DNA of 64,000 nucleotides from positions 1 through 64,000 of the forward strand of contig JBBRPR010000038.1 of assembly GCA_038227875.1 (NCBI GenBank), in the 5' to 3' direction. Every line of letters begins with the position of its first letter. Within the stretch, counting starts at the first letter, position 1. The notes under the pieces were generated by a model. The model was not told where the DNA came from and ran no database searches. It saw only the letters and a program-made list of their open reading frames with translations. Below, piece after piece: positions 11,002 to 33,861 of this stretch. This stretch comes from Planctomycetota bacterium (lineage in GTDB: Bacteria; Planctomycetota; SZUA-567; H5-PLA8). The translations under genes were made by a program, and so were the position numbers.

Positions 11002-11162
11002 GTTGCGCCTCGCTGATTGGAAGTTGCAGGGCCATGATACGGAGATGGAACTGCCGGGCAAGCAGCACGTCGAAATAAATCCATCAAGGTGCGTGCTTAA
11101 GTTGACCCTAATTTGAAATTAATGCGCTTGTTTTGAAATTTTACGTCTTTATTTATAATCAA

Positions 11163-11180
11163 AATACAACTAAGTGTATT
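11163..11180. promoter_or_regulatory. Palindromic operator candidate AATACA-N6-TGTATT
   Basis: AATACAACTAAGTGTATT in the divergent intergenic region, 16/18 identical to 7049-7066. Confidence 0.55.
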
Positions 11181-11237
11181 ATTGTGTACTTGAGCGCATC
11201 TCGCTCATTTGTCGACACTTCGGGGGAGACTGGCATC

Positions 11238-17094: not shown

Positions 17095-20000
17095 TTAGTT
17101 CTGCGTCACCACAATCGTCACCGTAATCGTCTGTTGCACTCCCGCGCCCTTGGTCAGCGCGGTCGGCGCGGTCAGGCGCAGGTCGAAGGCTTTGTACTGG
17201 CCCGAGTAGAGCATCGACGTCAGCACCTGCGGCGTCGACAGGTTAAGTCCAAACACGCCGGTGAGCGGGACGCTGTTGTCGGCTTTCATCTGGAATTGAT
17301 CGGTGCTCGGCGCGGCTCCGGCAACCCAGCCGCTCGGCGCGGAGGCGGAACACGAGATCGTACACTGCTGGCGGACCGTGCCTGTGTTGACCAGATTCAG
17401 CGCGACGGGGATGGGCGTGTTCGTCGACGCGGTGACGACGTCGTTGAGATCGATCGAGCCCATATCCCAGATGCGCGGCGTAATCGTCGTGTCGTCCCAC
17501 GAGACGGAGAGCACGCCCGCGCCGCCAGGGAGCAGGTCCACGGCCGCGGCGGTTCCGGCGGCCGAAGTCGGATAGCTGTACGTGAAATTTCCAAACGTAT
17601 CCTTCAGGTGAATACCACTGATGATGTAAACACCCGTCGGCACGCCTGCGGAAGTGGCCAGCGGCGAATAGGTACCGCCGGGCGTTAACTGCGGCAGCCC
17701 GGCGAGCGTGATCGTCACCGTGCTGCTGGCTGTCGCGTTGCCGACGACGACGGAGGTATCAAACGTGTCGCCGGTTACCGGCAGACCAATTTCGCCGATC
17801 AGCGCGCCGGTGGATTTCACCGGAATGCTGAACGTCAGCACCACTGTGTCGCCGGCGTCGACGCCCGGATTCGAACTGCCCAGGCCGTCGATCCACTTTG
17901 CGGAGAGCAGCACCGGGACCTGATGCAGCGTTACCGCATTGCCGAGATAACTGATCGAGAACCCTTGTGTGCCGTCGACGCTCATGACCAATCCGCCTTC
18001 CGGCAGGCCATTGAACGTGCCGACGATCGCCGAGGTGGACGTCATGATCGTGTAGAAATTGTTGGTGACGCCAGTGGTCGGCAAACCCGGACCGATGGAG
18101 ACATTCAGCGTGGCGCCGGTGACATTCAACGTGCCGGTCACGCTCAGCTGATCGTACGTCGAACCCAAAGTGGTGCCGTTGAGCAGCGGCGCATAGAGCG
18201 AGCCGGCATTGAAAACGGTGTTGCCTGCGGCATTCAGAATTCCCGTCGCGGCAGGCGTTCCGGGCATCACCACGCCGCCGCTGCTCACGGTCAGCGCGCT
18301 GACACTGCCGGTGCCGCTGAGCGTCGCGGAGTTACCAACGGTCGTCAGACCCGCTCCGGCGGCGAGCGTGCCGTTTACGAAAGTCGTGCCGGCGCTGAGC
18401 GTCGTGGTGCCGGTGTAGGTTTCCGCGGCGGCGAGCGTCACCGATCCGACGCCGGTGTTCGAGATGCCGCCCGAGTTGCTGATGACGCCATTGAGATTTG
18501 TCGCGCCCGCGGAGGCGACGCTTAGCAGCAGCCCTCCATTGTTGAGCGTCCCGCCCAATGTCAAAGTTCCGCCGGCAAAGGTGGTGATCGTGGGTGCGGC
18601 AGTGCCAAAGGCGATGTTGTTGTTGATGGCGTTCGCGCCCGCCGTGGCGCTGTAATTGATCGCCGCCGCGCCGCCTGTCAGGGTGACGCTGTTACCACTG
18701 AGCGTGTAGCCGGCGTCGGTAAAGTTGATCGCGTTGAAACTGGTTCCCGCGGCGATGTCGTTGGTCGTCGTGGTTTTGCGTGCCGCGCCGGCATTTCCGA
18801 ATGTGAGCGTATCGCCGACGCCCGGTGCGACGCCGCCGACCCAGTTCGCACCGTTCGACCAGTTGTCGTTGGCGCCGGCGCCGTTCCAGATGTAGTTACC
18901 GACCACGCGGGTCAGCACCACGCTGTTGGCATTGTAGGTGATCTGGAAATTCTGCCCGCTGATTGGGAAAATCGCGTTATTGGCCAGGCCCGTGAACAAA
19001 TTCGAGCGCGCACCCGTGCTGGTCATGATCGTGAACGCATCGCCGTTGGCTGCCGTGTACCCGCAGGTCACGCTGAGCGTCGCGTTGGTCAGATTGAGCG
19101 TGCCGGTGACGGCCAGCACGTCGAAATTGCCCGCGCCCGTTCCGTTCAACTGAACCTTAAAGGTGGACGCGCTGCTGAACGAGACCGCGCCGGTGCTCAG
19201 CTTGCCGGGATTGGTGTCGGGATCGCCGGGGCTAAGCGTTCCCCCCGTGCCCGTCACAGTGCCGTTGATCGTGCCGGTGCCACCGAGCGTTGCCGATGCG
19301 GCAACGCTCACCGCACTGCCCGCGGCCAGCGAACCGTCGACCAGCATCGTTCCCGCACTGACGGTCGTCGCGCCTGTGTACGTATTAACGCCAGAAAGTT
19401 TCAGCGTGCCCGTTCCGGTTTTGCTCAGCGCACCCGTGCTGGAGATCACGCCGCTGAGCGTGAGCACATTCGTCGCGGTGTCGATCTGAAACGCGCCCGT
19501 GCCGCCCGCGGCTAAGGTGAACGGCATCGTGCTGCTCGGCGACGTATTTCCGGTCAGTTCCAGCGTTCCCGTTTGTGTGTTGGAACCGAGCGTGACCGAC
19601 GGAACGTGGCCGAGCGGCTGATCGGTGCTGACGTTCGCCACCGTTCCCACCGAGATCGCACCCTGCGCGATGGTCGTGCCGCCCGTGAAGGTGTTGGTGC
19701 CGGACAAGGTCAGCGTGCCGGTGCCGGACTTGGTGAGGAATCCGGTACCCGAGATCACGCCCGCATAGGCGGCCGGGCTGGTGTTGTCGGAACCGACCGT
19801 CAGCGTCGCCGCGCCGAGTGTCACGTTGCCGCCGGTAGCTCCGCCGCCGGTGAGCGAACCGATGGTATTGTTGAAGCCAGTGGTGTCGAGAACCACGCCG
19901 GCCGTGTTGGCCAGCGTCACGGCGGACGTCACACCAAACGCCTGCGTCGCGATACCGGCCTTCAGCGTTCCGCCGTTCACGGTCATCGCGCCGGTGTAGG

Positions 20001-23000
20001 CATTCGCGCCGGAGACGGTCAGCGTTCCCGTTCCGGTTTTGGCAATGCCGCCGGTTCCGGAGATCACACCCGCGTACGCGGTGCTCGTGTTGTTCCCGCC
20101 CGCCGTCAAGGTCGCCGCGCCCAGGGTCACATTGCCGCCCAGCGCTCCGCCGCCGGCGAGCGAACCGATGGTGTTGCTGAAGCCGGTGATGTCGAGCGTC
20201 ACGCCCGCAACGTTGGCCAGCGTGACGGCCGAATTGACGCCGAACGCCTGCGTCGCGACGCCGGCTTTCAGCGTTCCCACATTAACTGTAGTCGCGCCGG
20301 AATAGGTGTTGGTTCCAGACAACGTGATCGTGCCCGAACCATTTTGCGTCAACGTTCCTGTTCCGCTGATCGTGTTGCTCACGCCCAGTGCCGCGGTCCG
20401 ATTGAAAATCAGTGCGCCACTGTCGGTGACCGCACCGGTACCGAGCGTCCCGGTCGCTCCGCCGTTGCCGATCTGCAGCGTGCCCGCGTTGATCGAAGTG
20501 GTTCCCGTGTAGGTATTGGTTCCGGTGAAAATCCACGTGCCCGCGTTGCTCTTCGCAACAGACGTTGCGCCACCATTGTCGCCCACCACCGCGGCGAGAA
20601 TATTGCTTCCGGCGTTCGTACCCGTCAGCGTCAGCGTGCGCGTTCCCGCGGCGGCGTTGAAGCCCATCGCGCCGGCATTGTTGAAATTCAGTGCGCCCGC
20701 GCCGGAGGAATCGATCGTGCCGCTATTGATTCCCACACTGAAAAGTCGATCGGTGGTGACACCCGCGCCGGTGTACTGCAGCGTGCCGCCGTCGAGGATC
20801 AGATTCGTCGCGACGTTCGTGGAGGCGCCGATGTTGCTGTTGGCGCCGCCGTTGGCCAGTGACGCGACGCTCAGCGTTCCGGCGGTCACGGCGGTCAGTC
20901 CCGTGTATGTGTTCGTTCCCGAAAGCGTTAGCACGCCACTTCCGGCCTGCGCGACGCTGCCCGTGCCGCTGACCACGTTCGAGACGGCGATGTTGTCGGT
21001 GCGATTAAAGACCAGCGCGCCATTGTCGGTCACACCCGCGGTGCCCAGTGACCCAGTCACGCCGGCGTTACCGATCTGCAAGGTTCCGGCGCTGATGGTG
21101 GTCAGGCCGCTATACGTATTCGCGCCGGTCAGAATCGTCGTGCCGGTTCCCGCTTGAGTCAGGGTGCCCGTTCCACTGATGGCGCTGCTGACGGTGAGTG
21201 CATTTGTACGGTTGAAGGTCAGAATCGCGTTGTCCGTGACCGCTCCAGTGCCGAGCGTACCGGTGAGACCCGCGTTGCCGATCTGCAGCGAGCCTGCGCT
21301 GATCGTCGTGGTTCCGGAGTAGCTGTTGGCACCGGCCAGGATCACCGTCCCCGCGCCGCTGCTGGTAAGTCCGCCGGTGTTGCTGAGCGCGCCGTTGATG
21401 GTCGTCGCGCCGGCTGAAGCCAGCGTCACCAGCAGGCCGCCGTTGTCGATGGCGCCATTGAGCGTCAGTGTGCCGCCGGCGATCGTCGTCACGGTCGGCG
21501 CGGCAGTGGCGAACGTAATCGCATTGTTGATCGTGTTCGCTCCGGCCGTCGCGCTGTAATTCAACGCCGTGGCTCCGCCGGCCAGCGTCACGCCATTGCC
21601 GTTCAGGATGTAACCGGCGCTCTGGAACTGGATGAAATTGAAACTCGTTCCCGCCGCAATGTTGTTGGTGTTGGTGGTCTTGCGCGCTGCGCCGGCGGCT
21701 CCGAAAAGCAGACTGTCGCCGACGCCCGGCGCCACGCCGCCGACCCAGTTAAACCCCGTCGACCAATTATTGTTGCTGCCACCGCCGTTCCAGATGTAAG
21801 TACCGACCACGCGCGTCAGCACCACGCTGTTGGCGTTGTAGGTAATTTTGAAATTCTGGCCGCTGATCGGAAAGATCGTGTTGTTCGGCAAGCCGGCAAA
21901 CGTGCCGCTCACCGCACCCGTGCTGGAAATGATGGTGAACGCCGTCCCGTTGACTGGAAAATAGCCGACGCCGATGGTGGAATTCAGCGTGCTGCCGCCC
22001 AAGTTGATCGCGCCGGTGACGCTGAGCTGATCGTAATTCGTTCCAACAACCGGTCCGTTGATTTGAATATTCAAGTCCGCGGCGGCGTTGAGCGTAACGG
22101 CGCCGGTGGTCAGGATGCCGGGGTTGCTGTCGGGATCGCCGGGACTGATCGCGCCTCCGAGCGCCGACGACGTCACCGTTCCGAAAACGGTGCCGGTGCC
22201 GCCCAGCGTGCCGCCGGTCAGCGAGACGGCGCTGCCCGCCGCGATCGAACCATCAACCAGCAGGTAGCCGTTGTTGATCGTGGTGACGCCGGTGTAGGTG
22301 TTGACGGCCACGAGTTTCAGCGTGCCGGTACCGGACTTGGTCAACGCGGGCGTGTTGGTGTTGACGATGGGATTGTTGATCGTGAGCGTACCGGTGCCGG
22401 CCGTGACCACGATCAATTCCGAAGTCGCGGAGGTCACTGTCAGCGCAATCGCGCCGCCGCCGATGGTCGCCGCAGCTCCGTTGCGCGCGATTAAGCCGCC
22501 CGCGCCGACACTGACGGTGGTCGCGGCTCCGGCCGTCTGCGTCAAGCTGCCACCGGGGTTGAAGGCAATCGAGAATGGCACGTTGGCGGGCGCGCTGTTG
22601 ACCGTCACCGCGTTCTGAACAATCGCCACTGAACCGGCGGTCGGCGGACCGGCCGGCGTCCACGTGGATGGCGTATTCCAATCGGTGTTCGCTTGCGAGG
22701 TATAAACCGGAGCGGCGAAAGTCAGTCCGTTAACGATACCGTCGGCCGCGTTGGTCGTGTCGTATGTGGAAGAACTGGTCACACCGGCAATCGTCACCGT
22801 CGCGTACGTGACAGCTCCGGCAGCCTGTGCGGCGGAGGTCAAGTGCGCCAGCCCCGTTCCGCCGCCGGTGTTGCGAACGTAATTCAACGTCGCTCCGGAC
22901 GTGCGCGAGAAGGCGAGCGTCGAAGCCAGGCGCGTCCGGCCGGTGCCGTTGGGCGTCAGCGAGATGCTGTTGTCGCCGCTGCTGAAGACGAGTTGCGATA

Positions 23001-26000
23001 CCGTTTCCGTACGATCCGTGTTGGCCGGTGCTTCGATGCTGAAATTTCCGCCGTTGAACGTGACGACGGCAGCATCGGGAATGCGATTGGGATTCGCCAC
23101 GCCGCTGGCATCGATATCCAGCGTGCCTCCGGTGTTTAGCGTAACACCGCTGGTGGCCAGTGTCCCGGTGTCGCCTTTCAGTTGCAGCGTGCCGCCGTTG
23201 ACCGTCGTCGCGCCCGTGTACGTTTCGGCAGTGGTGAAAACCAGCGTGCCCAGCGCAGACGTGGAACCGGCCGTGATCGCAAAAGCTCCGCTAATCGTAT
23301 TGGAGAAGGTCACCGTACTTCCGGTCGCCGCCGTAAAAAACGTATTCGAACCCATCGTCACCGTGCCATTAAACGTGCCGGTCGTGCCGGAGAGCGAACC
23401 GATCGTGTTCGTGGACGCGCCGTTACCTGTGGTCGTGATGTTCTGCGGAATCGTGACGTTGCCGTCGATCAGCAGCGCCGCGTTGGCGACCGCGCGGTTG
23501 AACGTCGCGCCGTTGACACCGATTGATGCCGGAGCGCCCAGCGCATTGTTGTTGGCCAGCGCCAGCGTGCCGCACCACACCGCAATGGCCCCGGTGAACG
23601 TATTGTTGCCGCTCAATTCCACCGTGCCGGTAAACGAGCCGGCGGCGTCGCTGTAGCCGACATTCAAATTCGGTCCGCTGACCACGCCGCTGTTGATCCA
23701 CACCGTACCGGGGTTGGCCAGGAAGAACGAGCTGTTGATGCTGATAGCGCGGTTACCCGTAAACGTCGTCGCGCCCACGGCCGCGATGGCGTTGTTGTTG
23801 GTCATGATCAGCGTATTGACCGGGTCGCCGAAACTGGCGTCGCTGTTGAACTCCAGATTCGTCGCGTTGGCCATGGAAAGATTAGCGATGTACGTGTTGG
23901 CTCCGGCCAGCGAGAGCCATGCATCGGAATTTCCAATCAGGTTCAAAGTCTGCCCGACTCCGCCGCCGCTGATCACACCGGTGATCACGATGGGTGTGGC
24001 GGACGTGGTGTTGTTGGGAATGTTGATCGAGATGCCCGTCACGCCGGCGCCCAGCGTCATCGGATTGTTTACATTCGTCACGGCCGTAAGCGTAAATGTC
24101 GTCCCGTCATTGAGTGTAATGGTCGTGGCGGGATCGCCGAGTTGGTTGGCGTTGCTGATCTGCAGAGTGCCTGCCGCAACGGTCAGGAATTCTCCCGCGC
24201 CGCCGAAGGTGTTGACGCCGGTCGGAAGCAGCGTTCCGGTGTTGGTCTTCGTCAGCGAATTGGCGCCCGAGATCACGCCGGAAAGCGTCAGCGTCGTGGC
24301 CGCCGCGACGTTCAGTGTGCCGTCGCCCGCAGCCATGATGTAACCGCGGGCGGAGGTGAATGTCGCAGTCGTCGCCAGCGTACCGCCGCCGAGCGTCACG
24401 GTGTTGGCGGCGTTGCCCAGATTGTTGTCGGCTGCAATCGAGAATGTACCGCCGCTGAGAGTCACGGCGCCGGTAAACGTGCTGGCCACGGGACTGGTCA
24501 GTATTCCGGCTCCAGTTTTCGTCAGCCCCGCCGCGCCGCTGATGATGCCGTTGAGCGCCGTGGCGCCGTCGCTGTTGACCGTCACCAGCAGGCCGCCGTT
24601 GTTGATGGTTCCGCCGATCGTCAGCGTGCCGCCGGCCAGGCAGGTGATCGTCGGCGCGCTGGTGGCGAAGATCAGCGGGATGCTGATGGAGTTGGCACCC
24701 GCAAAATTATTGTTCACCGCCGCCGCGCCGCCGTTGAGCGTCACGCTGTTGCCACTGAGCGTGTAACCGGAATCGGTGAATTGAATCGAGCCGAACGTCG
24801 TCGCCGCAGCGAAATTGTTCGTGTTGGTGGTCTTTCGTGCCGCACCCGCGGCTCCGAAAATCAGATTGTCGCCGACCCCTGGCGCAACGCCGCCGACCCA
24901 GTTGCCTCCGGTCGTCCAGTTGTTGTCCGCGCCTGCGCCGTTCCAGGTGAAATTTCCGACGAAGCGCGTGATCACCACACTGTTGGCGTTGTACGTGATC
25001 TGAAAATTCAATCCACCGATCGCAAAGATGGCGTTGTTGGCCAGCCCGGTGAATGTGTTGGAGATCGCGCCAGTACTGGTAAGAATCGTATACGTATCGC
25101 CGTTAAGCGGCACATAGCCCAGCGTGGCGTTGAGCGTACAATTGGTGAGATTGACCGCGCCGGTGACTGCAATCTGGTCGTACCCGGTACCGACCGTTGT
25201 CGAATTCAATTGCACTTTCAACGATGACGCGGCGGAAAATGAGAGCGCACCGGTCGCCAGAGTTTCGGGATTCGTGTCCGGATCGCCGGCGCTCAGCGTG
25301 CCGCCCGCAACAGTGACGCTGCCGCCGACCGCTCCCGTGCCGCCGAGCGTCGCGCCAGCGCTTACGGTTACCGCGCTGCCGGCGGCAAGAGAACCGTCGA
25401 CGAGCAGAATTCCCGTACTCACCGACGTTGCACCCGTATACGTGTTGACGGCCGTCAGTGTCAGCGTGCTGGAACCCGCCTGCGTCAGCGTGCCCGTGCC
25501 ACCGATGACATTGCTGACGGAATACGCATTGGTCCGGTTGAAAACCAGCGCCGCGTTGTTGGTGACACCGGCGGTGCCGAGCGTACCTGTCGCGCCCGCG
25601 TTTCCGATCTGCAACGTGCCCGCGCTGATCGTCGTTGTTCCGGAATACGTGTTGGCACCGGTGAGAATCGACGTACCTGTGCCCGCCTGCGTCAGCGTGC
25701 CCGTCCCGCTGATCACATTGGCCACGGTCATGCTGTTGGTGCGGTTGAAGGTCAGCGCCGCGTTGTCGGTCACCGCGCCCGTGCCCAGCGTTCCGGTCGC
25801 GCCTGCATTGCCGATCTGCAGTGTGCCGGCGCTGATCGTGGTGGTTGCCGTATACGTGTTCGCACCCGACAGGATCACGGTCCCCGCGGAGGATTTGGTA
25901 AATGCCCCCGCGCCCGCGAGAATTGCCGAAACGGTTCCGGCCTGCATGTCGAACGCCGTCGCACTCGTCACCGTGCCGTTTTGCAACGTACCGTTGTTGA

Positions 26001-26907
26001 CCACCGATACCGTCGGAATCGTCAGAGACTGGGCGCTCAGGTCGACCGTAGCGGTATCAACTTTTAGTGTCCCAGACACAGTTGTTGCGGCGGCGATGGT
26101 TTTCGTACCGCCCACACTGCCGGTGAGATTGACGTACGCTTTCGCGAGCACCGCCTGATTCGCATTCGCGTCGTAGACGACCGTGGCGCCGGTGCCGTTC
26201 AGCGTAACCGTATTCACACCCGTGCCGGATAGCGTCCACGGCGTCGCGTTGCCGAGGTTCAGCGTCGCGCTGCCATTGGTCATGGTAAAGCTTGACGTGT
26301 TGGCTGCGTTGGCGTTGACGGTCGTGAGTGTGCCGTTGACATCCACCAGCCCGCTGCCAAACGTGAAGGCAGCATTGTGAATGCGGGCGTTGCTGGTACC
26401 GATGAAACTGTTGAGCGTCAGAGTGCCAGTCACTACAAACGACGCGATCGACGAGGTCATCGTCATCGCGTAGGTACCGTTAACCGTGGAAGCCACCGCC
26501 GTACCCACGACCACCGTCGCGCACTGCAACGAGCCCGCGCCGGCGATAGTACACGCTGTGGCGCTGTTCAGCAGGCCTTTCAACGTAACGGAAGTGGTGA
26601 CCGTCAGGGTAAAGCCGGCGTTCACCGTGACCGTTCCCGAAGTGCTGCCGAACGCCAGGGAATTGCAGGTCCGGTTGCCATCGACAGTCAGAGTGAAGCC
26701 CGTGCCGACAACGATGTCATCGGTCGCCGCCGGAATAACGCCACCCGGCCACGGCGCGTTGTTCACCACGGAACTCCAGGCGCCCGATCCCGTCGTGGTG
26801 ATTGTCGCCGCCTGCGCGCTGGCGCCAAGGAACAGTACCACCAACGCCGCAGCAAAAATCCCTGCGCGCATCCGTGACTGCACCTCTGGCCATCCAACCA
26901 TCCTCAT
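17095..26907 (-). CDS. Giant secreted adhesin with autotransporter-associated beta-strand (PATR) repeats and a C-terminal pilin-like domain
   Basis: Signal peptide; many LTKxGxGTLxLxGxNTYTGxTxxxxGTL repeats; three internally repeated WNGxG...NWVGGVAPGVGD modules; no C-terminal beta-barrel; last ~140 aa align with the C-terminal domain of the four paralogs at 29487-33229. Confidence 0.9.
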   Translation of the reverse strand: MRMVGWPEVQSRMRAGIFAAALVVLFLGASAQAATITTTGSGAWSSVVNNAPWPGGVIPAATDDIVVGTGFTLTVDGNRTCNSLAFGSTSGTVTVNAGFTLTVTTSVTLKGLLNSATACTIAGAGSLQCATVVVGTAVASTVNGTYAMTMTSSIASFVVTGTLTLNSFIGTSNARIHNAAFTFGSGLVDVNGTLTTVNANAANTSSFTMTNGSATLNLGNATPWTLSGTGVNTVTLNGTGATVVYDANANQAVLAKAYVNLTGSVGGTKTIAAATTVSGTLKVDTATVDLSAQSLTIPTVSVVNNGTLQNGTVTSATAFDMQAGTVSAILAGAGAFTKSSAGTVILSGANTYTATTTISAGTLQIGNAGATGTLGTGAVTDNAALTFNRTNSMTVANVISGTGTLTQAGTGTSILTGANTYSGTTTISAGTLQIGNAGATGTLGTAGVTNNAALVFNRTNAYSVSNVIGGTGTLTQAGSSTLTLTAVNTYTGATSVSTGILLVDGSLAAGSAVTVSAGATLGGTGAVGGSVTVAGGTLSAGDPDTNPETLATGALSFSAASSLKVQLNSTTVGTGYDQIAVTGAVNLTNCTLNATLGYVPLNGDTYTILTSTGAISNTFTGLANNAIFAIGGLNFQITYNANSVVITRFVGNFTWNGAGADNNWTTGGNWVGGVAPGVGDNLIFGAAGAARKTTNTNNFAAATTFGSIQFTDSGYTLSGNSVTLNGGAAAVNNNFAGANSISIPLIFATSAPTITCLAGGTLTIGGTINNGGLLVTVNSDGATALNGIISGAAGLTKTGAGILTSPVASTFTGAVTLSGGTFSIAADNNLGNAANTVTLGGGTLATTATFTSARGYIMAAGDGTLNVAAATTLTLSGVISGANSLTKTNTGTLLPTGVNTFGGAGEFLTVAAGTLQISNANQLGDPATTITLNDGTTFTLTAVTNVNNPMTLGAGVTGISINIPNNTTSATPIVITGVISGGGVGQTLNLIGNSDAWLSLAGANTYIANLSMANATNLEFNSDASFGDPVNTLIMTNNNAIAAVGATTFTGNRAISINSSFFLANPGTVWINSGVVSGPNLNVGYSDAAGSFTGTVELSGNNTFTGAIAVWCGTLALANNNALGAPASIGVNGATFNRAVANAALLIDGNVTIPQNITTTGNGASTNTIGSLSGTTGTFNGTVTMGSNTFFTAATGSTVTFSNTISGAFAITAGSTSALGTLVFTTAETYTGATTVNGGTLQLKGDTGTLATSGVTLNTGGTLDIDASGVANPNRIPDAAVVTFNGGNFSIEAPANTDRTETVSQLVFSSGDNSISLTPNGTGRTRLASTLAFSRTSGATLNYVRNTGGGTGLAHLTSAAQAAGAVTYATVTIAGVTSSSTYDTTNAADGIVNGLTFAAPVYTSQANTDWNTPSTWTPAGPPTAGSVAIVQNAVTVNSAPANVPFSIAFNPGGSLTQTAGAATTVSVGAGGLIARNGAAATIGGGAIALTVTSATSELIVVTAGTGTLTINNPIVNTNTPALTKSGTGTLKLVAVNTYTGVTTINNGYLLVDGSIAAGSAVSLTGGTLGGTGTVFGTVTSSALGGAISPGDPDSNPGILTTGAVTLNAAADLNIQINGPVVGTNYDQLSVTGAINLGGSTLNSTIGVGYFPVNGTAFTIISSTGAVSGTFAGLPNNTIFPISGQNFKITYNANSVVLTRVVGTYIWNGGGSNNNWSTGFNWVGGVAPGVGDSLLFGAAGAARKTTNTNNIAAGTSFNFIQFQSAGYILNGNGVTLAGGATALNYSATAGANTINNAITFATAAPTVTTIAGGTLTLNGAIDNGGLLVTLASAGATTINGALSNTGGLTSSGAGTVILAGANSYSGTTTISAGSLQIGNAGLTGTLGTGAVTDNAILTFNRTNALTVSSAISGTGTLTQAGTGTTILTGANTYSGLTTISAGTLQIGNAGVTGSLGTAGVTDNGALVFNRTDNIAVSNVVSGTGSVAQAGSGVLTLSGTNTYTGLTAVTAGTLSVASLANGGANSNIGASTNVATNLILDGGTLQYTGAGVTTDRLFSVGINSGTIDSSGAGALNFNNAGAMGFNAAAGTRTLTLTGTNAGSNILAAVVGDNGGATSVAKSNAGTWIFTGTNTYTGTTSINAGTLQIGNGGATGTLGTGAVTDSGALIFNRTAALGVSNTISGTGTLTQNGSGTITLSGTNTYSGATTVNVGTLKAGVATQAFGVNSAVTLANVAGVTLDITGFSNTIGSLAGGGALGGNVTLGAATLTAGGNNTSTAYAGVISGTGGIAKTGTGTLTVSGANAYTGAMTVNGGTLKAGIATQAFGVTSAVTLANTAGVVLDTTGFNNTIGSLTGGGATGGNVTLGAATLTVGSDNTSPAAYAGVISGTGFLTKSGTGTLTLSGTNTFTGGTTIAQGAISVGTVANVSTDQPLGHVPSVTLGSNTQTGTLELTGNTSPSSTMPFTLAAGGTGAFQIDTATNVLTLSGVISSTGALSKTGTGTLKLSGVNTYTGATTVSAGTMLVDGSLAAGSAVSVAASATLGGTGTINGTVTGTGGTLSPGDPDTNPGKLSTGAVSFSSASTFKVQLNGTGAGNFDVLAVTGTLNLTNATLSVTCGYTAANGDAFTIMTSTGARSNLFTGLANNAIFPISGQNFQITYNANSVVLTRVVGNYIWNGAGANDNWSNGANWVGGVAPGVGDTLTFGNAGAARKTTTTNDIAAGTSFNAINFTDAGYTLSGNSVTLTGGAAAINYSATAGANAINNNIAFGTAAPTITTFAGGTLTLGGTLNNGGLLLSVASAGATNLNGVISNSGGISNTGVGSVTLAAAETYTGTTTLSAGTTFVNGTLAAGAGLTTVGNSATLSGTGSVSALTVSSGGVVMPGTPAATGILNAAGNTVFNAGSLYAPLLNGTTLGSTYDQLSVTGTLNVTGATLNVSIGPGLPTTGVTNNFYTIMTSTSAIVGTFNGLPEGGLVMSVDGTQGFSISYLGNAVTLHQVPVLLSAKWIDGLGSSNPGVDAGDTVVLTFSIPVKSTGALIGEIGLPVTGDTFDTSVVVGNATASSTVTITLAGLPQLTPGGTYSPLATSAGVPTGVYIISGIHLKDTFGNFTYSYPTSAAGTAAAVDLLPGGAGVLSVSWDDTTITPRIWDMGSIDLNDVVTASTNTPIPVALNLVNTGTVRQQCTISCSASAPSGWVAGAAPSTDQFQMKADNSVPLTGVFGLNLSTPQVLTSMLYSGQYKAFDLRLTAPTALTKGAGVQQTITVTIVVTQN

Positions 26908-26917
26908 CCGAATTCCG

Positions 26918-27226
26918 CTACTCCGCCTTTTCCGCCGCCGAAACCTTGATGTTCGCGTCGTCGATCTTCGAGCCCGTCAGTTTTACTTTCAGTCCCTTGG
27001 CCGCCCAGTCCTTCAGGTCTTTAGCCGTGTCGCTGTCGGCCCACACATTCACGACCACGTCTTTCGCGCCTTCCTTGAACGTCAGCGTTGCTACGACTCC
27101 TTCTTTTGCGCCCGCCGGGGCCGCCGCCAGCGTGCCCGTCCAGACCTGATTGATCGCACTGGCCGGCGCCGACAGCAGCAGTAAAAACACCAGCGCCAGC
27201 GGCACCGCCTGATTCATTCGTCGCAT
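26918..27226 (-). CDS. Small secreted beta-rich protein, unknown function
   Basis: Signal peptide ending APASA; tightly packed in the operon (10-11 nt gaps); AAGGA RBS. Confidence 0.8.
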   Translation of the reverse strand: MRRMNQAVPLALVFLLLLSAPASAINQVWTGTLAAAPAGAKEGVVATLTFKEGAKDVVVNVWADSDTAKDLKDWAAKGLKVKLTGSKIDDANIKVSAAEKAE

Positions 27227-27237
27227 CGCGTCATCCT

Positions 27238-28419
27238 TTATTTTCGCTTCAGCACAAACCGAGCGTTGGCGTTCAGCACGTTCCGGCTGACTTTGTAGAG
27301 CACCTTCGGCTGATCGATGTACACCTGGTTGCTCAGCGTCAGACTGATCGGCAGCGACGCCATCGCGCCGGCCTTGGGCGTGGCCACGTTGGTCAGGCCG
27401 CTGGCCGCGAGCGCCGCCGCAAAGTCGCCGCGGAGGAAGAAGTTGATCTTCACCGGCCCGCCGAAGAACTGTTTCCGGATCAGTTTGCGGACGAGCGAGA
27501 AGCGATTGGTGCCGGACTTGCCACGTCCGTTCTTATCCATCGTGAATGTCGCCGTCACATTCCCCACAGCGACCTGCACCGTTTGTTTCAGCGGATTGAA
27601 TCCCGCCGGCAGCGTCACCAGGCCGAAGACCTGAATTCGGTCGCGGCCCTTGATCTTGAAGTTTAAATTGATGCTCGCGCGCGTGACCGTCCACGGCAGC
27701 ACCGTCGGCGGAATCACTGCCGCGCCCTGCGAAACCTTGACCAGCATCGGCACCAGCAACACGCCTCCGAAGCCATCGGTGACCGTGATCGTTGCCAGGT
27801 ACGAATTGGCCGTGGGATAGTTATGCTGAACCGTCGCCCCGCTGCCAAACGTCCCATCGCCAAAATCCCACGAATAGTTCAGCGTCGCCCCGACCGGGCT
27901 CGTCGCCAGACACGTGAAGTTGACCATGTCCGCCGTCGTCGGCGCCGCCGGAGAAAAACTCGGATTGATCGTAAACACCGGCGGAATATCGCCGTAGTTG
28001 AAGGCCAGGCCGGAGCCCTTAGGTATCGGCACGTTACCGGGTGTGCGGAACACGTTGTCGAAGAGAGCCACCCGCTTGGCGCCGAAACTGTTCAGCGAAC
28101 CATCGTAAAGTATATTGAGCGTGCGAGCGTCGGCCCAGACCAATTGACGCGCGGTCAGGCCGGCAGGCAGCAGGACCTGCTTAATGTCGATCTGCGTGAT
28201 ATTCATGTCTTCGCTAAAGACGAATTGAATCTGAGGTGTGGCGCTGGTGATTGTCGAACCGTCCGTCGGAAGTGTTGAGATAATGACCGGCGCGTTTCCG
28301 GTTCGGTTCGCGACCGTCGCGCTGATACCGACTCCCAGACCTGAATTCTTGCTTGCTGCCGCAAATACAGACGAAGCTGTTAGAGTTGCCAGCAGGCAAA
28401 GAATCCAAGATCTAAACAT
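27238..28419 (-). CDS. Secreted Ig-like plus PKD protein with an N-terminal pilin-type strand and a basic C-terminal domain (putative pilus base/anchor)
   Basis: Signal peptide; SKNSGLGVGISATVANR; Big_5-like APVIISTLP...FSEDM; PKD motif YSWDFGDG; C-terminal domain shared with 11238-16154 and 54040-56442. Confidence 0.85.
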   Translation of the reverse strand: MFRSWILCLLATLTASSVFAAASKNSGLGVGISATVANRTGNAPVIISTLPTDGSTITSATPQIQFVFSEDMNITQIDIKQVLLPAGLTARQLVWADARTLNILYDGSLNSFGAKRVALFDNVFRTPGNVPIPKGSGLAFNYGDIPPVFTINPSFSPAAPTTADMVNFTCLATSPVGATLNYSWDFGDGTFGSGATVQHNYPTANSYLATITVTDGFGGVLLVPMLVKVSQGAAVIPPTVLPWTVTRASINLNFKIKGRDRIQVFGLVTLPAGFNPLKQTVQVAVGNVTATFTMDKNGRGKSGTNRFSLVRKLIRKQFFGGPVKINFFLRGDFAAALAASGLTNVATPKAGAMASLPISLTLSNQVYIDQPKVLYKVSRNVLNANARFVLKRK

Positions 28420-28465: not shown

Positions 28466-29404
28466 TCACGGCTTTTTGGCCGGCGCAATGTCCGCGAGTG
28501 GTTGCAGCGCGATAATCGATCGCGCCCGCAGAAAATCAGTTACTTTGCCTTTCTCATCGGCGACAAAAACCAGCTCTTCATAGTTCTTGCCGCGCACTGC
28601 TGAGGAGGGCACGTTCACTTTCAACGATAGAGCTTTGGATTCACCCGCTTTCAAGGTGAAGGGCTTGTCCATTTCGATCCATTCGTCTTTTAGCACCGGT
28701 GTGCAACCTTTGCCGTAATAGCGTTCGTGGTGTCCGACTTCCTTTTCCACCTCGCCGATCCGCTTCAACGAGTATGTGTGTTCCTCTTTCGAATTATTCG
28801 TGAATTTGGTCAGCACCGTCCAGAACGTTCCTGGTTGCGTCTCCGGCATTTCCAGTATGGAAGGAATTACCGTCGTTTCGCCAAGCGCTTCTTTCGACAT
28901 CGGTTCGGCGAGCGTTTCCAATTGAACTCGTGATGCAACTTGCAAGCCAACAACGCCCGTCGCATTGGCTTTACCAGGGCTGCAGCAGACCACAACCATC
29001 CATTTTTGATTGTACAATTCTGGTTTGTCGGGAACTTTAACGAACAAGTTCACTTTGCCTTCGGATTTGGCCGGGACTTCCAACTCTTCTTTATCCAGCG
29101 AGCACCAAGCAGCATCAGGAATGTCACGGTATCCCAGTTCCCAAGAACCTAGAACGCCAGAAACCTTCCTCACAGCGATGTTGAAAACCTGCGCCTTGTC
29201 CGTACCGTTGTAGACAATGAATGAGCCTGTACCCGCGAAGACATCGACCTTGTCGGCTCCGGGGCGAATGTTCTCGACCAGAACCATTCCTGGCCCGATG
29301 CCAAATCCGGTTCCACCTTCAGCACCCCACGCTGGCGAGGTCGTAACTAGAACTGCCAGCACGATTACGAAAGAGCGAAATAAGGAAGAAGATGGAATGT
29401 GCAT
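28466..29404 (-). CDS. Secreted two-Ig-domain protein, DUF916-like or fimbrial chaperone-like
   Basis: Signal peptide; two internally similar domains with VxNxT...W...LxVPAxSxxxVxLxVKVP patterns recalling PapD/EcpB-like chaperones and DUF916. The ORF is solid; the functional call is inference. Confidence 0.65.
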   Translation of the reverse strand: MHIPSSSLFRSFVIVLAVLVTTSPAWGAEGGTGFGIGPGMVLVENIRPGADKVDVFAGTGSFIVYNGTDKAQVFNIAVRKVSGVLGSWELGYRDIPDAAWCSLDKEELEVPAKSEGKVNLFVKVPDKPELYNQKWMVVVCCSPGKANATGVVGLQVASRVQLETLAEPMSKEALGETTVIPSILEMPETQPGTFWTVLTKFTNNSKEEHTYSLKRIGEVEKEVGHHERYYGKGCTPVLKDEWIEMDKPFTLKAGESKALSLKVNVPSSAVRGKNYEELVFVADEKGKVTDFLRARSIIALQPLADIAPAKKP

Positions 29405-29486: not shown

Positions 29487-30341
29487 TCAGTTAGCCGTTG
29501 CCGTCAATGTAACGTTGTACTGATTCAGCACTCCCGCGTTTCCGGCCGTCACTGTGGTGGGGTTGTCCACTTCCAACACCAAGGGCATGTCGGTGGCAGT
29601 GGTCAAGTTCACGGTCAGATTCTGAGCGGTAAACAGAGAGGTGGGCGCGACACCGTTCATTCCGCCTTTGATGGCCACGACGTTTGGACCGGCCGCGGCG
29701 GCGAGATTGAAAGGCCCTGCAGTCTTCACAGCAATAGCGCTGATGGTGCAGGCACTGCCTGTGGCCGAGACATTCGAAACGTTGATCGTTTTGTTGTTTT
29801 GCGCATCGTCGCTGCGGTAGATCGTGGCGAGGTCTGTCTGACTAGCCGCCAATAGCGTGCTGTCCTTGACGGTCCACGCATAGTTGGAAACCCGATTGGC
29901 GGGCTGGGTATGATCCACGGACCCATCGTCCGGCGTAGTGCCGTTACCCCACTGAATCTGGGCGCGCTTGGAAACGGTGGTGCTAACGACGACAACCAAC
30001 TGGTTGTTGCGGGAGACATACGTGTAGAAATTAGCGGCGGATACCGTGCCATTGACCGTAACCGTCACGGCGCCGGCCGATCCCGCGGGGGTCAAGGCGA
30101 CATCCAGCGTGTTGTTGGCCACATTCACTGCGGTCACGGTTGCCGAGGTGGCGCCAAAGAGAACGGTATTGCTGGCAGGTGTTGCATTGATCGCAATACC
30201 GGAGGTGAAAATTCGCACGAGCTGGCCGCCTGTGGCGGGTCCGCTGTTAGGGGAGATCGAGTTGACGGTAGCTGCGAAGGTGTTGCCGAGCGAAGCGAGG
30301 AGAAGAAGCAGCGCAAGTTTGAACGTTCGGGTCATCGTCAT
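29487..30341 (-). CDS. IPT/TIG domain plus pilin-like domain secreted protein (paralog 4)
   Basis: Signal peptide; ISPNSGPATGGQLVRI IPT start; conserved RAQIQWG...NYAWTVKD...VTLTATAN C-terminal domain. Confidence 0.88.
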   Translation of the reverse strand: MTMTRTFKLALLLLLASLGNTFAATVNSISPNSGPATGGQLVRIFTSGIAINATPASNTVLFGATSATVTAVNVANNTLDVALTPAGSAGAVTVTVNGTVSAANFYTYVSRNNQLVVVVSTTVSKRAQIQWGNGTTPDDGSVDHTQPANRVSNYAWTVKDSTLLAASQTDLATIYRSDDAQNNKTINVSNVSATGSACTISAIAVKTAGPFNLAAAAGPNVVAIKGGMNGVAPTSLFTAQNLTVNLTTATDMPLVLEVDNPTTVTAGNAGVLNQYNVTLTATAN

Positions 30342-30422: not shown

Positions 30423-31295
30423 TTAGTTCGCCGTCGCTGTCATCGTCACGTTGTAGGTATTCAGCACGCCGGCGTTACCAGAAGTGACCGTGGTCGGCGT
30501 GTCGAATTCCAGAACCAGCGGCTGATCGGTCGTGGTGAGCAAACTTCCCGTCAATGTCTGAGCGGTGAACAGCGAAGTGAGTGCACCAGCGCCCATTGCT
30601 CCTTTGATCGCGACAACGTCGGGACCGGCGGTGGCCGCGAGATTGAAGTTACCGGCCGTCTTGGTGGCAATCGCACTGATCGTGCAGGCATTTCCAGTCG
30701 ACGAAACATTGGAGACGTTGATCGTCTTGTTGTTTTGCGCATCGTCGCTGCGGTAGATCGTGCCTAGATCGGTCTGGAGCGAAGCCAGCAGCGTGCTGTC
30801 TTTCACCGTCCAGGCGTAATTGGAGATGCGGTTGGCAGCCAGTGTATGGTCGACAGCACCGTCGTCAACCGTTGTGCCAGTACCCCACTGGATCTGTGCG
30901 CGCTTGGCCACTGTATCGCTGACCACCACGACGAGCGTGTTGTTGCGAGAAACGAACGTATACAACGTATTTGCCACATTGGTGCCATTTGCGTTGGTGA
31001 CCGTGACGCTCAGGTTCGCGCCCGCTACGGCTGCCAACGTCGTAAAGTCGCAGGTAGTGGTGGTCGCTGCACTGGCGGGAATGCCACCGGCGGGGAGACC
31101 GTTGATTTTGACCAGGTTGTTCGCCGCGGTGGTATCGAAATTGGTGCCGTAAATTCGAATGAGCTGCCCGCCGGCAATTGGACCGCTATTCGGCGAAACA
31201 GCCGTGACGGTGGGGACGGCAGCGAGAGCCTGGCTGGACATGCCAACGGCGGCCACGACGGCTACAGCTAGAATGAGTGAGTTCAACTTTTTCAT
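30423..31295 (-). CDS. IPT/TIG domain plus pilin-like domain secreted protein (paralog 3)
   Basis: Signal peptide; PTVTAVSPNSGPIAGG IPT start; same C-terminal domain, ending VTMTATAN; GGAG RBS. Confidence 0.9.
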   Translation of the reverse strand: MKKLNSLILAVAVVAAVGMSSQALAAVPTVTAVSPNSGPIAGGQLIRIYGTNFDTTAANNLVKINGLPAGGIPASAATTTTCDFTTLAAVAGANLSVTVTNANGTNVANTLYTFVSRNNTLVVVVSDTVAKRAQIQWGTGTTVDDGAVDHTLAANRISNYAWTVKDSTLLASLQTDLGTIYRSDDAQNNKTINVSNVSSTGNACTISAIATKTAGNFNLAATAGPDVVAIKGAMGAGALTSLFTAQTLTGSLLTTTDQPLVLEFDTPTTVTSGNAGVLNTYNVTMTATAN

Positions 31296-31384: not shown

Positions 31385-32263
31385 TTAGTTGCCCGTGGCA
31401 GTCAAGGTCACGGTGACGACGGCGGTCTGGCCCTGATTTCCATTTGTAATGGTGGTCGGGGAATCAAATTCCAGGACGAGAGGCTGGTCTGAACCAACCG
31501 TTAGATTGTTCGTCAATGTTTTTGCAGTAAACAGGTTCTTCATTGCAGTGTTGTTCATTTCGCCGCTGACTGAAATGACGTCAGGAGCAGCCGCAGCAGC
31601 CAACGTGTAAGGTGCGCCACCCGTCGCAATTGCACTGATGGTGCAGCTCGAACCGGCAATCGAAGAGACGTTCGAAACGTTGATCGTCTTGCCATTGTTG
31701 AAATCGTCGCTGCGGTAGTTGGTTGCCAAGTCGATCTGTTGCTTGCCAGCGATTACGCCAATCGAGTTGTCTTTTACCGTCCAAGCGTAGTTGGTGATGT
31801 AATCGGCAGCCACCGTGTGATCGACGGAGGCATCGTCCACCGTCGTTCCTGTGCCCCACTGGATCTGCGCACGATTGGCCACTGTCGCGCTGATCTGCAC
31901 AACCAGCTTGTTGTTACGAGAAACAAATTTGTAATTGACTGCGCCGCCACTCTGAGTGCTGGCGCCTGAAGAATTGGTATTTACAACAACCAAGCCTGAA
32001 CCAGTCGTGGTCGTTGCCAGGGTTGTGCAGGTAAGCTGCGTCGCGGTTGCAGCCGTGACCGTGACAGCCACGCCGTTCAATGTCACGACGTTATTGGCTG
32101 CCGTCGTGTCGAATCCCGAGCCATAGATACGAACAAACTGACCGCCACCGGACGGGCCGCTGGTAGGCGAAATCGCGGTCACATCGGATACTGCTGCGAA
32201 CGCGCTACCGGATACCACCATCGCCGCCAAAACCATCACCACCTTCAGTAAGTTCGTCTTCAT
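31385..32263 (-). CDS. IPT/TIG domain plus pilin-like domain secreted protein (paralog 2)
   Basis: Start moved to ATG 32263 (AAGGAG RBS, signal peptide MKTNLLK...SAFA); SRNNKLVVQISATVANRAQIQW; ends VTVTLTATGN. Confidence 0.9.
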   Translation of the reverse strand: MKTNLLKVVMVLAAMVVSGSAFAAVSDVTAISPTSGPSGGGQFVRIYGSGFDTTAANNVVTLNGVAVTVTAATATQLTCTTLATTTTGSGLVVVNTNSSGASTQSGGAVNYKFVSRNNKLVVQISATVANRAQIQWGTGTTVDDASVDHTVAADYITNYAWTVKDNSIGVIAGKQQIDLATNYRSDDFNNGKTINVSNVSSIAGSSCTISAIATGGAPYTLAAAAAPDVISVSGEMNNTAMKNLFTAKTLTNNLTVGSDQPLVLEFDSPTTITNGNQGQTAVVTVTLTATGN

Positions 32264-32386
32264 CCCCGCGTCTCCTTTGCAAAAGCTCCTAGGTTGTAAA
32301 GTTTTCACAGTATCCGAGTGCCGGTGGTTCCAATTCTGTTTCAAGTTTGACTTCCCTCCCCCACGCCGTGCGCGGTGCCCGTTTGG

Positions 32387-33229
32387 TTAGTTCGCTGTAG
32401 ACACCAGCGTCACTGTTGAAGTCTGTGCCACTCCTGCCGCCGCCGCCGTAATGCTCGTTGGCGTCGCCATCTCCAGTACCAGCGCTTGGTCCGTACCCTT
32501 GACCAGTGCGTTGGTCAGCACTGTTGGCGCGGCGCTCAGTGCCACCGGAGCCGCGCCGCCCAGGGACGCGCGCAGACGAAAGGTGTTTGCTCCTGCGGCG
32601 GCGCCAATGGTCCAGGACGCGGTGTTGGTGGCGATGGCATTGATCGTATTCGTGGCGTTGGTGGGCGAGATATTCGAGAGGTTGATGACCTTGTTATTCA
32701 ACGCATCGTTGCTTTGGTAGACCGTGTTTACGTCCGCGTTCACGCCCAGCGAACTGTCTTTTACAATCCACATATAGTTGGTGATGCGGTTGGCACCGAC
32801 AGTGTGGTCGACACCCGCGTCGTCGACGCTTGTACCGTTGCCCCACTGGATGTCGGAGCGCTTCGGGATCGTCAGCACCACGGACACCTGAACATTAACG
32901 TTTCCGTTCGTGTATGTGTAGCCATTCGCCAGCGTCGAGGTTCCGATTCCCGCTCCGTTGGTCACCGAGATCGTGACGTTGCCGACGGTGTGAGCGGGAA
33001 CTACAGCGCTGATTGTAGCGTCGTCGATCACTGTAAAAGTCGCAGGCGAGATGCCGAAGGTGACGCCAGTTGCCGCACCATTGTTAAAGTTTGAACCAGA
33101 GATCGTCACCGTCGTGCCGCCATTGATCGTGCCCGAATTCGGAACCACGCCAGAGATCGTCGGCACAGCGGCCCCGAATGCAGCGCGGGTCATGAACGCG
33201 AAGATGAAGATCAAGGTGCCGGTTTTCAC
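32387..33229 (-). CDS. IPT/TIG domain plus pilin-like domain secreted protein (paralog 1)
   Basis: GTG 33229 after AAGGA; canonical IPT domain PTISGVVPNSG..GGTTVTISGSNF...VTFG; C-terminal domain ends TVTLVSTAN. Confidence 0.9.
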   Translation of the reverse strand: MKTGTLIFIFAFMTRAAFGAAVPTISGVVPNSGTINGGTTVTISGSNFNNGAATGVTFGISPATFTVIDDATISAVVPAHTVGNVTISVTNGAGIGTSTLANGYTYTNGNVNVQVSVVLTIPKRSDIQWGNGTSVDDAGVDHTVGANRITNYMWIVKDSSLGVNADVNTVYQSNDALNNKVINLSNISPTNATNTINAIATNTASWTIGAAAGANTFRLRASLGGAAPVALSAAPTVLTNALVKGTDQALVLEMATPTSITAAAAGVAQTSTVTLVSTAN

Positions 33230-33861
33230 GTGTGACTTTTCCTTCTCGATTGCACTGGTGCTGAGCTCGCGATGCAAATTGAATCAATTTGCGACTCAAC
33301 TGTTTTGTTCTTCGGACGACGTCTGTATTGCAAACGAGACACCATGTGCGGATTCCACTACACTTTGCTCGTTTCAAATCGGCAGGCCCTTCAGCATCAA
33401 GCGGTTAACTTTTAAATTTCGATTTTCTGCAAAATTTGCAGTTCAAAATTTGGCATGAGTTTTGACTCAATTTGCCACTCCGCAAATTTTGATGTGACTC
33501 ATTACGCGCCGGAAATTATCGGCTGTTGTCTGGCGCAACGGTTCTTGGAAGTTGTGATTCTGGAAGGAATTGCTGTCCGATTCGTTAACAATTTTTGGCG
33601 GCGCAAATATGCACGCGTTCGTCGCTCACGTTTAGAAACGTGTGCATCGACAACGCGAATATAACAATACTAAAAGGTAGGTTGTCGTCGTGTGCCAATT
33701 GGCACTTGGCATCTTTTTGTCATTGGTTCGAAGTCGATCCCGCGCCTTCGCCTCAAAGTGCGGCAACATGCGCGCGGCCACCATCGCGCGGTGATTTTCC
33801 TTAAGGCGCCGGCGTCGCAGCTAGACCGAGATCACGAACTCGACCATGGTGGACAAGGAGG

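Follow-up and report, generated by a model that had tools for sequence, protein, structure and literature searches.

The 393-aa secreted protein encoded on a 64,000-nucleotide stretch of a Planctomycetota bacterium contig (JBBRPR010000038.1; the whole stretch is referred to as the window) probably, judging from its sequence and its gene neighborhood, forms the end of an usher-less donor-strand fibre as a subunit with a strand only, and perhaps also anchors that fibre. Three classes of protein were distinguished in the operon: a giant adhesin carrying an acceptor domain only, four pilin-like paralogs carrying a strand plus an acceptor domain, and the 393-aa protein carrying a strand only. The paralogs are encoded upstream of the 393-aa gene on the same strand, and each has a signal peptide. 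All features are listed in Table 1. The 102-aa secreted protein included there gave no family match and had no homologue in the other loci examined.

Table 1. Positions of the putative fibre genes in the window and of the segments distinguished within them
Feature	Position	Strand	Basis or remark
3270-aa beta-strand-repeat adhesin, candidate tip	17095..26907	(-)	TIGR02601 repeats, E 3.5e-80
Acceptor-like end of the 3270-aa protein, last ~120 aa	17101-17457	(-)	pilin C-domain HMM
102-aa secreted protein	26918..27226	(-)	between the 393-aa gene and the giant; membership doubtful
393-aa protein	27238-28419	(-)	ORF of the window
pkdC, C-terminal basic beta-rich domain, residues 240-388 of the 393-aa protein	27256..27702	(-)	AF2
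PKD domain, residues 148-230 of the 393-aa protein	27730..27978	(-)	Pfam PKD_4, E 3.1e-13
Big_5, first Ig-like domain, residues 42-142 of the 393-aa protein	27994..28296	(-)	Pfam PF13205, E 4.8e-6; AF2 strands 45-142
Lone donor-like strand, residues 23-39 of the 393-aa protein	28303..28353	(-)	BLASTP, AF2
Signal peptide, residues 1-22 of the 393-aa protein	28354..28419	(-)	sequence read by eye
312-aa secreted protein, candidate chaperone	28466..29404	(-)	between paralog 4 and the 393-aa gene
Paralog 4: TIG, strand (29964-30014), acceptor-like C-domain	29487..30341	(-)	
Paralog 3: TIG, strand (30900-30950), C-domain	30423..31295	(-)	
Paralog 2: TIG, strand (31871-31921), C-domain	31385..32344	(-)	strand is the best match to the lone strand
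Paralog 1: TIG, strand (32858-32908), C-domain	32387..33277	(-)	

Residues 23-39 of the 393-aa protein read SKNSGLGVGISATVANR and map exactly to the interval given for the lone strand. The signal peptide in front of them is probably cleaved near VFA/AAS, as judged by eye. An earlier note on this DNA had claimed that the strand matches one in paralog 2 with eight consecutive identical residues. BLASTP bore this out: 12 of 17 residues were identical to residues 142-158 of paralog 2, the final eight of them consecutively (E 0.012, for one single comparison). The underlying DNA was identical at 27 of 51 bases, and the codons differed at 8 of the 12 identical residues, implying that the peptide has been kept by selection and does not stem from recent gene conversion. 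Six-frame translation of the organism's own 9.3-Mb genome gave 99,897 ORFs with a minimum length of 50 aa, in which a degenerate 12-position strand pattern was searched. The pattern had four matches, namely paralogs 2, 3 and 4 and the 393-aa protein.

The remainder of the 393-aa protein is of a different make. A pilin-like domain was not found in it (family HMM 0.6 bits with filters off), in agreement with what the earlier note had stated. As that note had also described, Ig and PKD domains follow the strand, and then comes a C-terminal domain, here called pkdC, which is present in a 1673-aa protein of the window as well. Pfam placed Big_5 at residues 42-110 and PKD at residues 161-219, and the PKD domain was superimposed on 2c4x_A over 88 residues (VIA Z 13.7, rmsd 1.5). 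No TM helix, LPxTG motif or lipobox was seen in the 393-aa protein when the sequence was judged by eye. An AF2 model built from 13 sequences had a mean pLDDT of 77.7. Residues 1-38 were unstructured, with pLDDT below 50, and the first strand of Big_5 was formed by residues 45-50. Thus, the model places the lone strand outside the protein's first Ig domain; the earlier note had named the opposite, an integral strand of that domain, as a result that would speak against its proposal.

Conservation of the strand in orthologues, a check set beforehand, was examined in an alignment of 13 sequences, comprising the 393-aa protein and 12 relatives (E 2e-188 to 2e-48). Nine sequences cover the N-terminus, two start inside the strand, and two are truncated. 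An alternating hydrophobic strand follows the signal peptide in all nine that cover this region, and the strand was retained in orthologues down to 37% identity. The lone strand is confirmed as real, conserved and specific, and not as a product of chance. An orthologue of 976 aa from genome G298 (L008:6554-9484, (-)) contains four tandem Big_5-PKD units between strand and C-terminal domain, showing that stalk length varies between genera. A metagenome scan with the orthologue alignment gained no syntenic locus, as generic PKD matches dominated. One orthologue, P0011, has a TIG domain ahead of the strand, as in the pilins of the window, and then the PKD body, as if the 5' part of a pilin gene had been grafted onto a PKD gene. 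Such an arrangement is what would be expected if the match were the relic of a gene fusion that has no function or serves as an integral strand of the protein itself. This explanation is highly improbable, because the peptide was kept through synonymous divergence and in orthologues as distant as those just mentioned, because the same strand occurs on four or more unrelated bodies (see below), and because it lies outside the Big_5 domain in the AF2 model. Taken as a functional element, the strand supports a subunit that could occupy the strand site of a pilin and would be unable to accept a further subunit.

The pilin-like paralogs end in a C-domain of ~160 aa that lacks a Pfam family. Searching 1.84 billion representatives yielded 33 proteins of this C-domain family at E<=0.001, and the organism's own genome contains four copies. 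A weak match in genome G122 was not confirmed as a member by the family HMM. Several members of only ~190-205 aa consist of a signal peptide, the strand and the C-domain, the strand following the signal peptide directly; in further members, NHL repeats, one to three TIG domains or modules of another kind come first. From the short members it follows that strand plus C-domain is the conserved unit. Across 35 pilin-family sequences, the 9-residue window of the strand scored 2.75 bits compared with a mean of 2.26 bits. It was surpassed only by windows from AQIQWG/TGTTVDD, PLVLEFDSPT and NYAWTVKD, and the C-terminal strand reached 2.70 bits. The strands in the window have the form L-x-V-x-I/V-x-A/D/T-x-V-x-N/K-R, with no terminal Phe. 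In an AF2 model of paralog 2 made from seq­uences of seven proteins, the pLDDT of the C-domain was about 33, too low for use. The pilin domain profile recovered from the PDB sequences two chance-level matches alone (E 1.8 and 4.8). In the ESM Atlas the domain fell among unnamed clusters, the nearest named ones being WxL (0.90) and SCPU (0.88, with SCPU carried by 15% of the cluster's members), both of which serve as leads only. With regard to gene starts, the TTG start listed for paralog 2 places 26 residues before a methionine (MKTNLL...) that opens a normal signal peptide; this ATG is probably the true start.

The 3270-aa protein is built of autotransporter-associated beta-strand repeats. 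Its C-terminus scored 57.1 bits with the 35-member HMM and matched model positions 58-174 only; the match was missed by default hmmsearch and seen only with filters off. The giant keeps the motif that follows the strand in the pilins (LSVSW). No amphipathic strand was found ahead of it, and the 22 preceding residues include six Pro/Gly. The tip-like proteins gave the same picture: in six of six loci from the organism's own family, their matches to the family HMM began no earlier than position 14, and thus these proteins are without the strand.

The 312-aa protein belongs to a strongly conserved family (29 sequences) and is the most conserved component of the gene set. Its C-terminal half matched generic Ig-like families, and the protein as a whole would consist of two Ig domains. 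PF06030 (WxLIP_PGBD, DUF916) was found at E<=1 in 24 of the 29 family members, with a best value of 8.3e-6; the copy in the window scored 20.6 bits, below the cut-off of 27.3. PF11797 was absent among the best 25 of the 30 families matched by the 312-aa family. When the whole PDB was searched with the family profile, the best matches were two chains of EfmWxLIP1, 9i25_C and 9i1y_A (E 0.066 and 0.072), the alignment covering the N-terminal half of the 312-aa protein including its invariant VGL-x-VASRVQ stretch. ESM features placed the protein with clusters in which PF06030 is carried by a minority (11-41%) of members, at scores of 0.88-0.89. Together these matches are suggestive, short of proof, of a distant relationship to the WxL-interacting chaperones. 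No TM helix was found in the 312-aa protein, which has a polar tail with no hydrophobic stretch at its end, and the copy in the window looks soluble. Three homologues elsewhere (L112:4750-5943, (+); L114:9518-10777, (-); L115:5705-6739, (-)) have long Pro/Ala linkers and apparent lipoprotein signals, recognized by eye from a Cys after an Ala/Gly-rich box; these signals would tether the candidate chaperone to the membrane.

The gene set recurs. The order tip, pilin(s), 312-aa homologue and strand-only protein was found in genomes of three Planctomycetota families. Besides the window, five loci of the organism's own family have this order (genomes G298, G404, G410, G408 and G409), each encoding a tip-like protein of 800-1260 aa, one or two pilins, a 312-aa homologue and a PKD-type protein with the N-terminal strand; a sixth contig of this family (G408:C590) has the last two genes alone. 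Members of the 312-aa family were detected in three families of the phylum, with 6 positive genomes out of 62 for the class and 9 out of 401 for the phylum sample. Wherever the gene after the 312-aa homologue was visible (13 of 13 loci, not counting L112 and L108, whose sequence stops too soon), it encoded a signal peptide followed directly by a strand of this type. The bodies behind the strand differ: PKD with pkdC in seven loci, Cadherin_3 in two, Big_5 or Big_12 in two, a combination of TIG, beta-helix, Calx-beta and PKD in one, and Big_13 in one, which amounts to at least four unrelated types. In locus L109, nine consecutive residues are common to the strand-only protein and the pilin.

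If the strands of the end subunit and of the pilins were to fit the same groove, they might be expected to resemble each other locus by locus. For the 11 loci that have both partners, the first 28 mature residues of each strand-only protein were compared with strand regions of 18 residues taken from the pilins of all the loci. The best ungapped local BLOSUM62 match was taken as the score, with the register left free for all pairs. The pilin of the own locus was the best match in 5 of 11 loci and ranked 2, 2, 3, 6, 8 and 10 in the others, the ranks 10, 8 and 6 belonging to G100, G123 and G408. The summed own-locus score was reached by 70 of 200,000 random re-pairings, by 49 of 200,000 after column normalisation, and by 717 of 200,000 when the locus of the window was left out; these permutation figures overstate independence, given the relatedness of the loci and the low complexity of the strands. 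The direction is clear, and the strands appear to track each other as a shared, co-evolving binding site would make them do.

These data also bear on the idea that the common segment does not polymerise subunits but serves as a tag, to be recognised by the 312-aa protein or in a shared export or processing step. Its position directly after the signal peptide, both in the short pilins and in all strand-only proteins, would suit a tag, as would the fact that the adjoining gene encodes the component with the strongest conservation. A tag would, however, be expected on the tip-like proteins of the same operons too, which are without the segment, and in the pilins of the window the segment is internal, behind the TIG domain. 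Moreover, with its alternating hydrophobic residues over 10-12 positions and its co-variation with the local pilin, the segment has the look of a groove-filling strand. A tag is therefore considered distinctly unlikely.

On the preferred reading, in which the segment is a donor strand, assembly may be pictured as follows. In each paralog an amphipathic beta-strand would precede an incomplete acceptor domain, and by insertion in trans each strand would complete the acceptor domain of a neighbour, with the 312-aa protein acting as periplasmic chaperone. The giant repeat adhesin, with an acceptor domain and no strand, would sit at one end of the fibre, the only place possible for it. The last free groove, most likely one into which the strand of paralog 2 fits too, would be filled by the strand of the 393-aa protein (about residues 26-39). 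Because the 393-aa protein has no acceptor domain, nothing could be added after it, and its position at the end of the chain would follow. Big_5 and PKD would form a short stalk, and pkdC, a module of about 70 secreted proteins, would fix this end of the fibre to the envelope.

The last of these steps was examined through the distribution of pkdC. The domain (~150 aa) has no Pfam family. It was detected in 93 ORFs of the organism's own genome at E<0.001 and in 69 by stricter criteria; the latter are spread over 46 contigs, and their median length is 938 aa. Apart from the 393-aa protein, the carriers are the 1673-aa beta-helix/PKD protein of the window (11133-16154, (+)) and 67 further ORFs. 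In 67 of the 69 stringent ORFs, pkdC lies within 20 residues of the ORF end. An extreme C-terminal position in so many otherwise unrelated secreted proteins is typical of a sorting or anchoring module, and pkdC may be an undescribed C-terminal signal of this kind in this planctomycete lineage. Foldseek and VIA searches with the 393-aa model returned PKD and Ig matches that filled the results, so that the C-terminal domain was not reached.

That the 393-aa protein is a cell-side anchor and not displayed cargo is the weakest step of the reading. The earlier note had called the protein a terminator that caps the last subunit and tethers the fibre to the cell surface. The strand-only subunit stood up, by conservation, by the 13 of 13 loci and by the tracking of strands within loci; its tethering to the cell surface we only infer. 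A strand that inserts in trans might belong to a cargo or adaptor protein, either exposed at the fibre's end or plugged into the acceptor domain of the giant, while attachment to the cell would be brought about by something else. The strand-only proteins of six distant loci (324-1517 aa) are unrelated to the PKD protein, pkdC was not found in them, and they are adhesin-like with no evident anchor, two being Cadherin_3 giants; they fit cargo as well as anchor. Large adhesin- or enzyme-like bodies (Cadherin_3, beta-helix, Calx-beta, Big) without any recognised anchor are indeed what cargo would look like, and a separate gene for an outer-membrane barrel of the Pom family in the L110 operon points the same way. 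On the other hand, the strict C-terminal placement of pkdC argues for anchoring, and in the models of the Elr and Pam pili, the two usher-less precedents considered (10.64898/2026.10.17.759780; 10.64898/2026.03.03.709456), it is the groove-only subunit that is placed at the distal tip. Cargo is thus rather unlikely, and the 393-aa protein is retained as the probable end subunit that perhaps serves as anchor.

The Pom-family gene just mentioned (L110:5826-7967, (-), genome G100) encodes a 714-aa protein composed of an acidic N-terminal region and a barrel (PF17251, E 1.5e-12). It lies in the operon between the strand-only and tip genes, was seen in L110 only, and is a candidate for an outer-membrane partner. 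The strand-only protein of L115 was considered as a barrel on account of its aromatic C-terminal residue; this was rejected when a comparison with the Pom-like L110 protein revealed no similarity (E 0.76).

Relations to known pili were analyzed by searching for their signature families. Neither Usher (PF00577) nor PapD_N (PF00345) had a match at E<=0.01 in the organism's own genome, with E. coli controls positive; PF13731, the WxL domain, gave no match at E<=0.01 with a positive control genome, and the genome-wide scan for PF06030 likewise gave none. The genome is 88.1% complete, which limits all of these genome-wide absences. An usher or other outer-membrane conduit was not seen within the window. 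PF13731 was found in 0 of 35 pilin-family members at E<=1, and SCPU (PF05229), the family of the archaic Csu/SCPU pilins, had no Pfam match in the paralogs or in the 35 family members. Classical chaperone-usher pili polymerise by donor-strand exchange, have a tip adhesin whose pilin domain is without a strand, and possess a dedicated subunit that ends growth. The terminator of P pili, PapH, retains a pilin domain with a non-exchangeable groove. Donor-strand polymerisation, as proposed here, a strandless tip and a dedicated end subunit would be common to both systems, whereas the end subunit in the window, unlike PapH, is without any acceptor domain.

A closer counterpart is the Elr/WxL pilus of Enterococcus faecalis. 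According to Sleutel et al. (10.64898/2026.10.17.759780), the pilins ElrC/D combine a donor strand with an Ig-like domain that is incomplete, ElrD polymerises by donor-strand exchange and ElrE, a membrane-anchored DUF916/DUF3324 protein, is the chaperone; ElrA, with a payload and, at its C-terminus, a WxL domain without strand, is the predicted tip, and ElrB, with a strand only and LPxTG, the predicted terminator and anchor. The same text gives the system as occurring in Bacillota only, among 4,698 genera screened, and states that a C-terminal TM helix anchors 96.7% of WxL chaperones. Set against this account, the window has candidates for the same four roles (pilins as ElrC/D, tip as ElrA, non-usher chaperone as ElrE, terminator as ElrB) and no usher, and its giant, as ElrA, joins a variable N-terminal tip payload to a C-terminal acceptor without strand. 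Differences are equally clear. Where ElrB has LPxTG, the putative terminator of the window carries two Ig-like domains and pkdC; the strands in the window do not show the Elr/WxL consensus [S/T]8-x-[G/A]10-x-[V/I]12-x-F14; no TM helix was found in the candidate chaperone, whose similarity to DUF916 stays below the threshold; and the host is a planctomycete, not a member of the Bacillota.

The second counterpart is the Pam pilus of Candidatus Mycosynbacter amalyticus, a member of the CPR. As described by Troman et al. (10.64898/2026.03.03.709456), a Pam pilin begins with a beta-sandwich, continues with a single internal linker strand that is given to the neighbour, and closes with a truncated Ig C-domain. 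The tip PamT is without strand. PamR, the predicted terminator and anchor of the fibre, has its strand at the N-terminus, followed by two FnIII domains and a TM helix; the pilins are reported as exclusive to the CPR. The order TIG, strand, C-domain of the pilins in the window is the same, and PamR, as there described, is the closest likeness of the 393-aa protein (strand, two Ig-like domains, terminal module), in both cases by layout. In contrast, the Pam cell has no outer membrane, and TM helices hold PamR and the Pam chaperones in place; the planctomycete protein has pkdC instead. The lipoprotein-type tether predicted for the three 312-aa homologues may be likened to the TM helix of ElrE and of PamC/D in those descriptions. 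Part by part, the operon in the window would thus reproduce the logic of the Elr and Pam systems, the likeness being one of gene layout.

Usher-less donor-strand pili with a strand-only terminator were first described in 2026 (10.64898/2026.10.17.759780; 10.64898/2026.03.03.709456). As stated there, they were confined to the Bacillota (Elr/WxL) or the CPR (Pam), both without outer membrane. The genes analyzed here would constitute a planctomycete variant, outside the taxa of both descriptions and in a phylum with an outer membrane. Among the papers searched, none combined 'donor strand' with Planctomycetes or Planctomycetota.

A further-reaching possibility, which we put forward tentatively, is that the Planctomycetota have a lineage of their own of usher-less, chaperone-assisted donor-strand fibres, with a portable plug strand of ~15 residues and with pkdC as a sorting or anchoring signal. 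The strand would then attach any secreted protein, be it a PKD stalk, a cadherin-like giant or a beta-helix enzyme, to a free fibre end, and pkdC would be a previously unrecognised C-terminal signal of about 70 proteins per genome. If true, this could identify the proteins of the long-unexplained surface fibres of planctomycetes. With a chaperone candidate that is soluble or lipid-anchored, pilins diverged beyond detection and end proteins that are interchangeable, the planctomycete version would extend the mechanism to a wider range. How such a fibre would cross or be fixed to an outer membrane then becomes a question, and the genes offer candidates that can be tested, both for the surface fibres of planctomycetes and for how giant adhesins are displayed.
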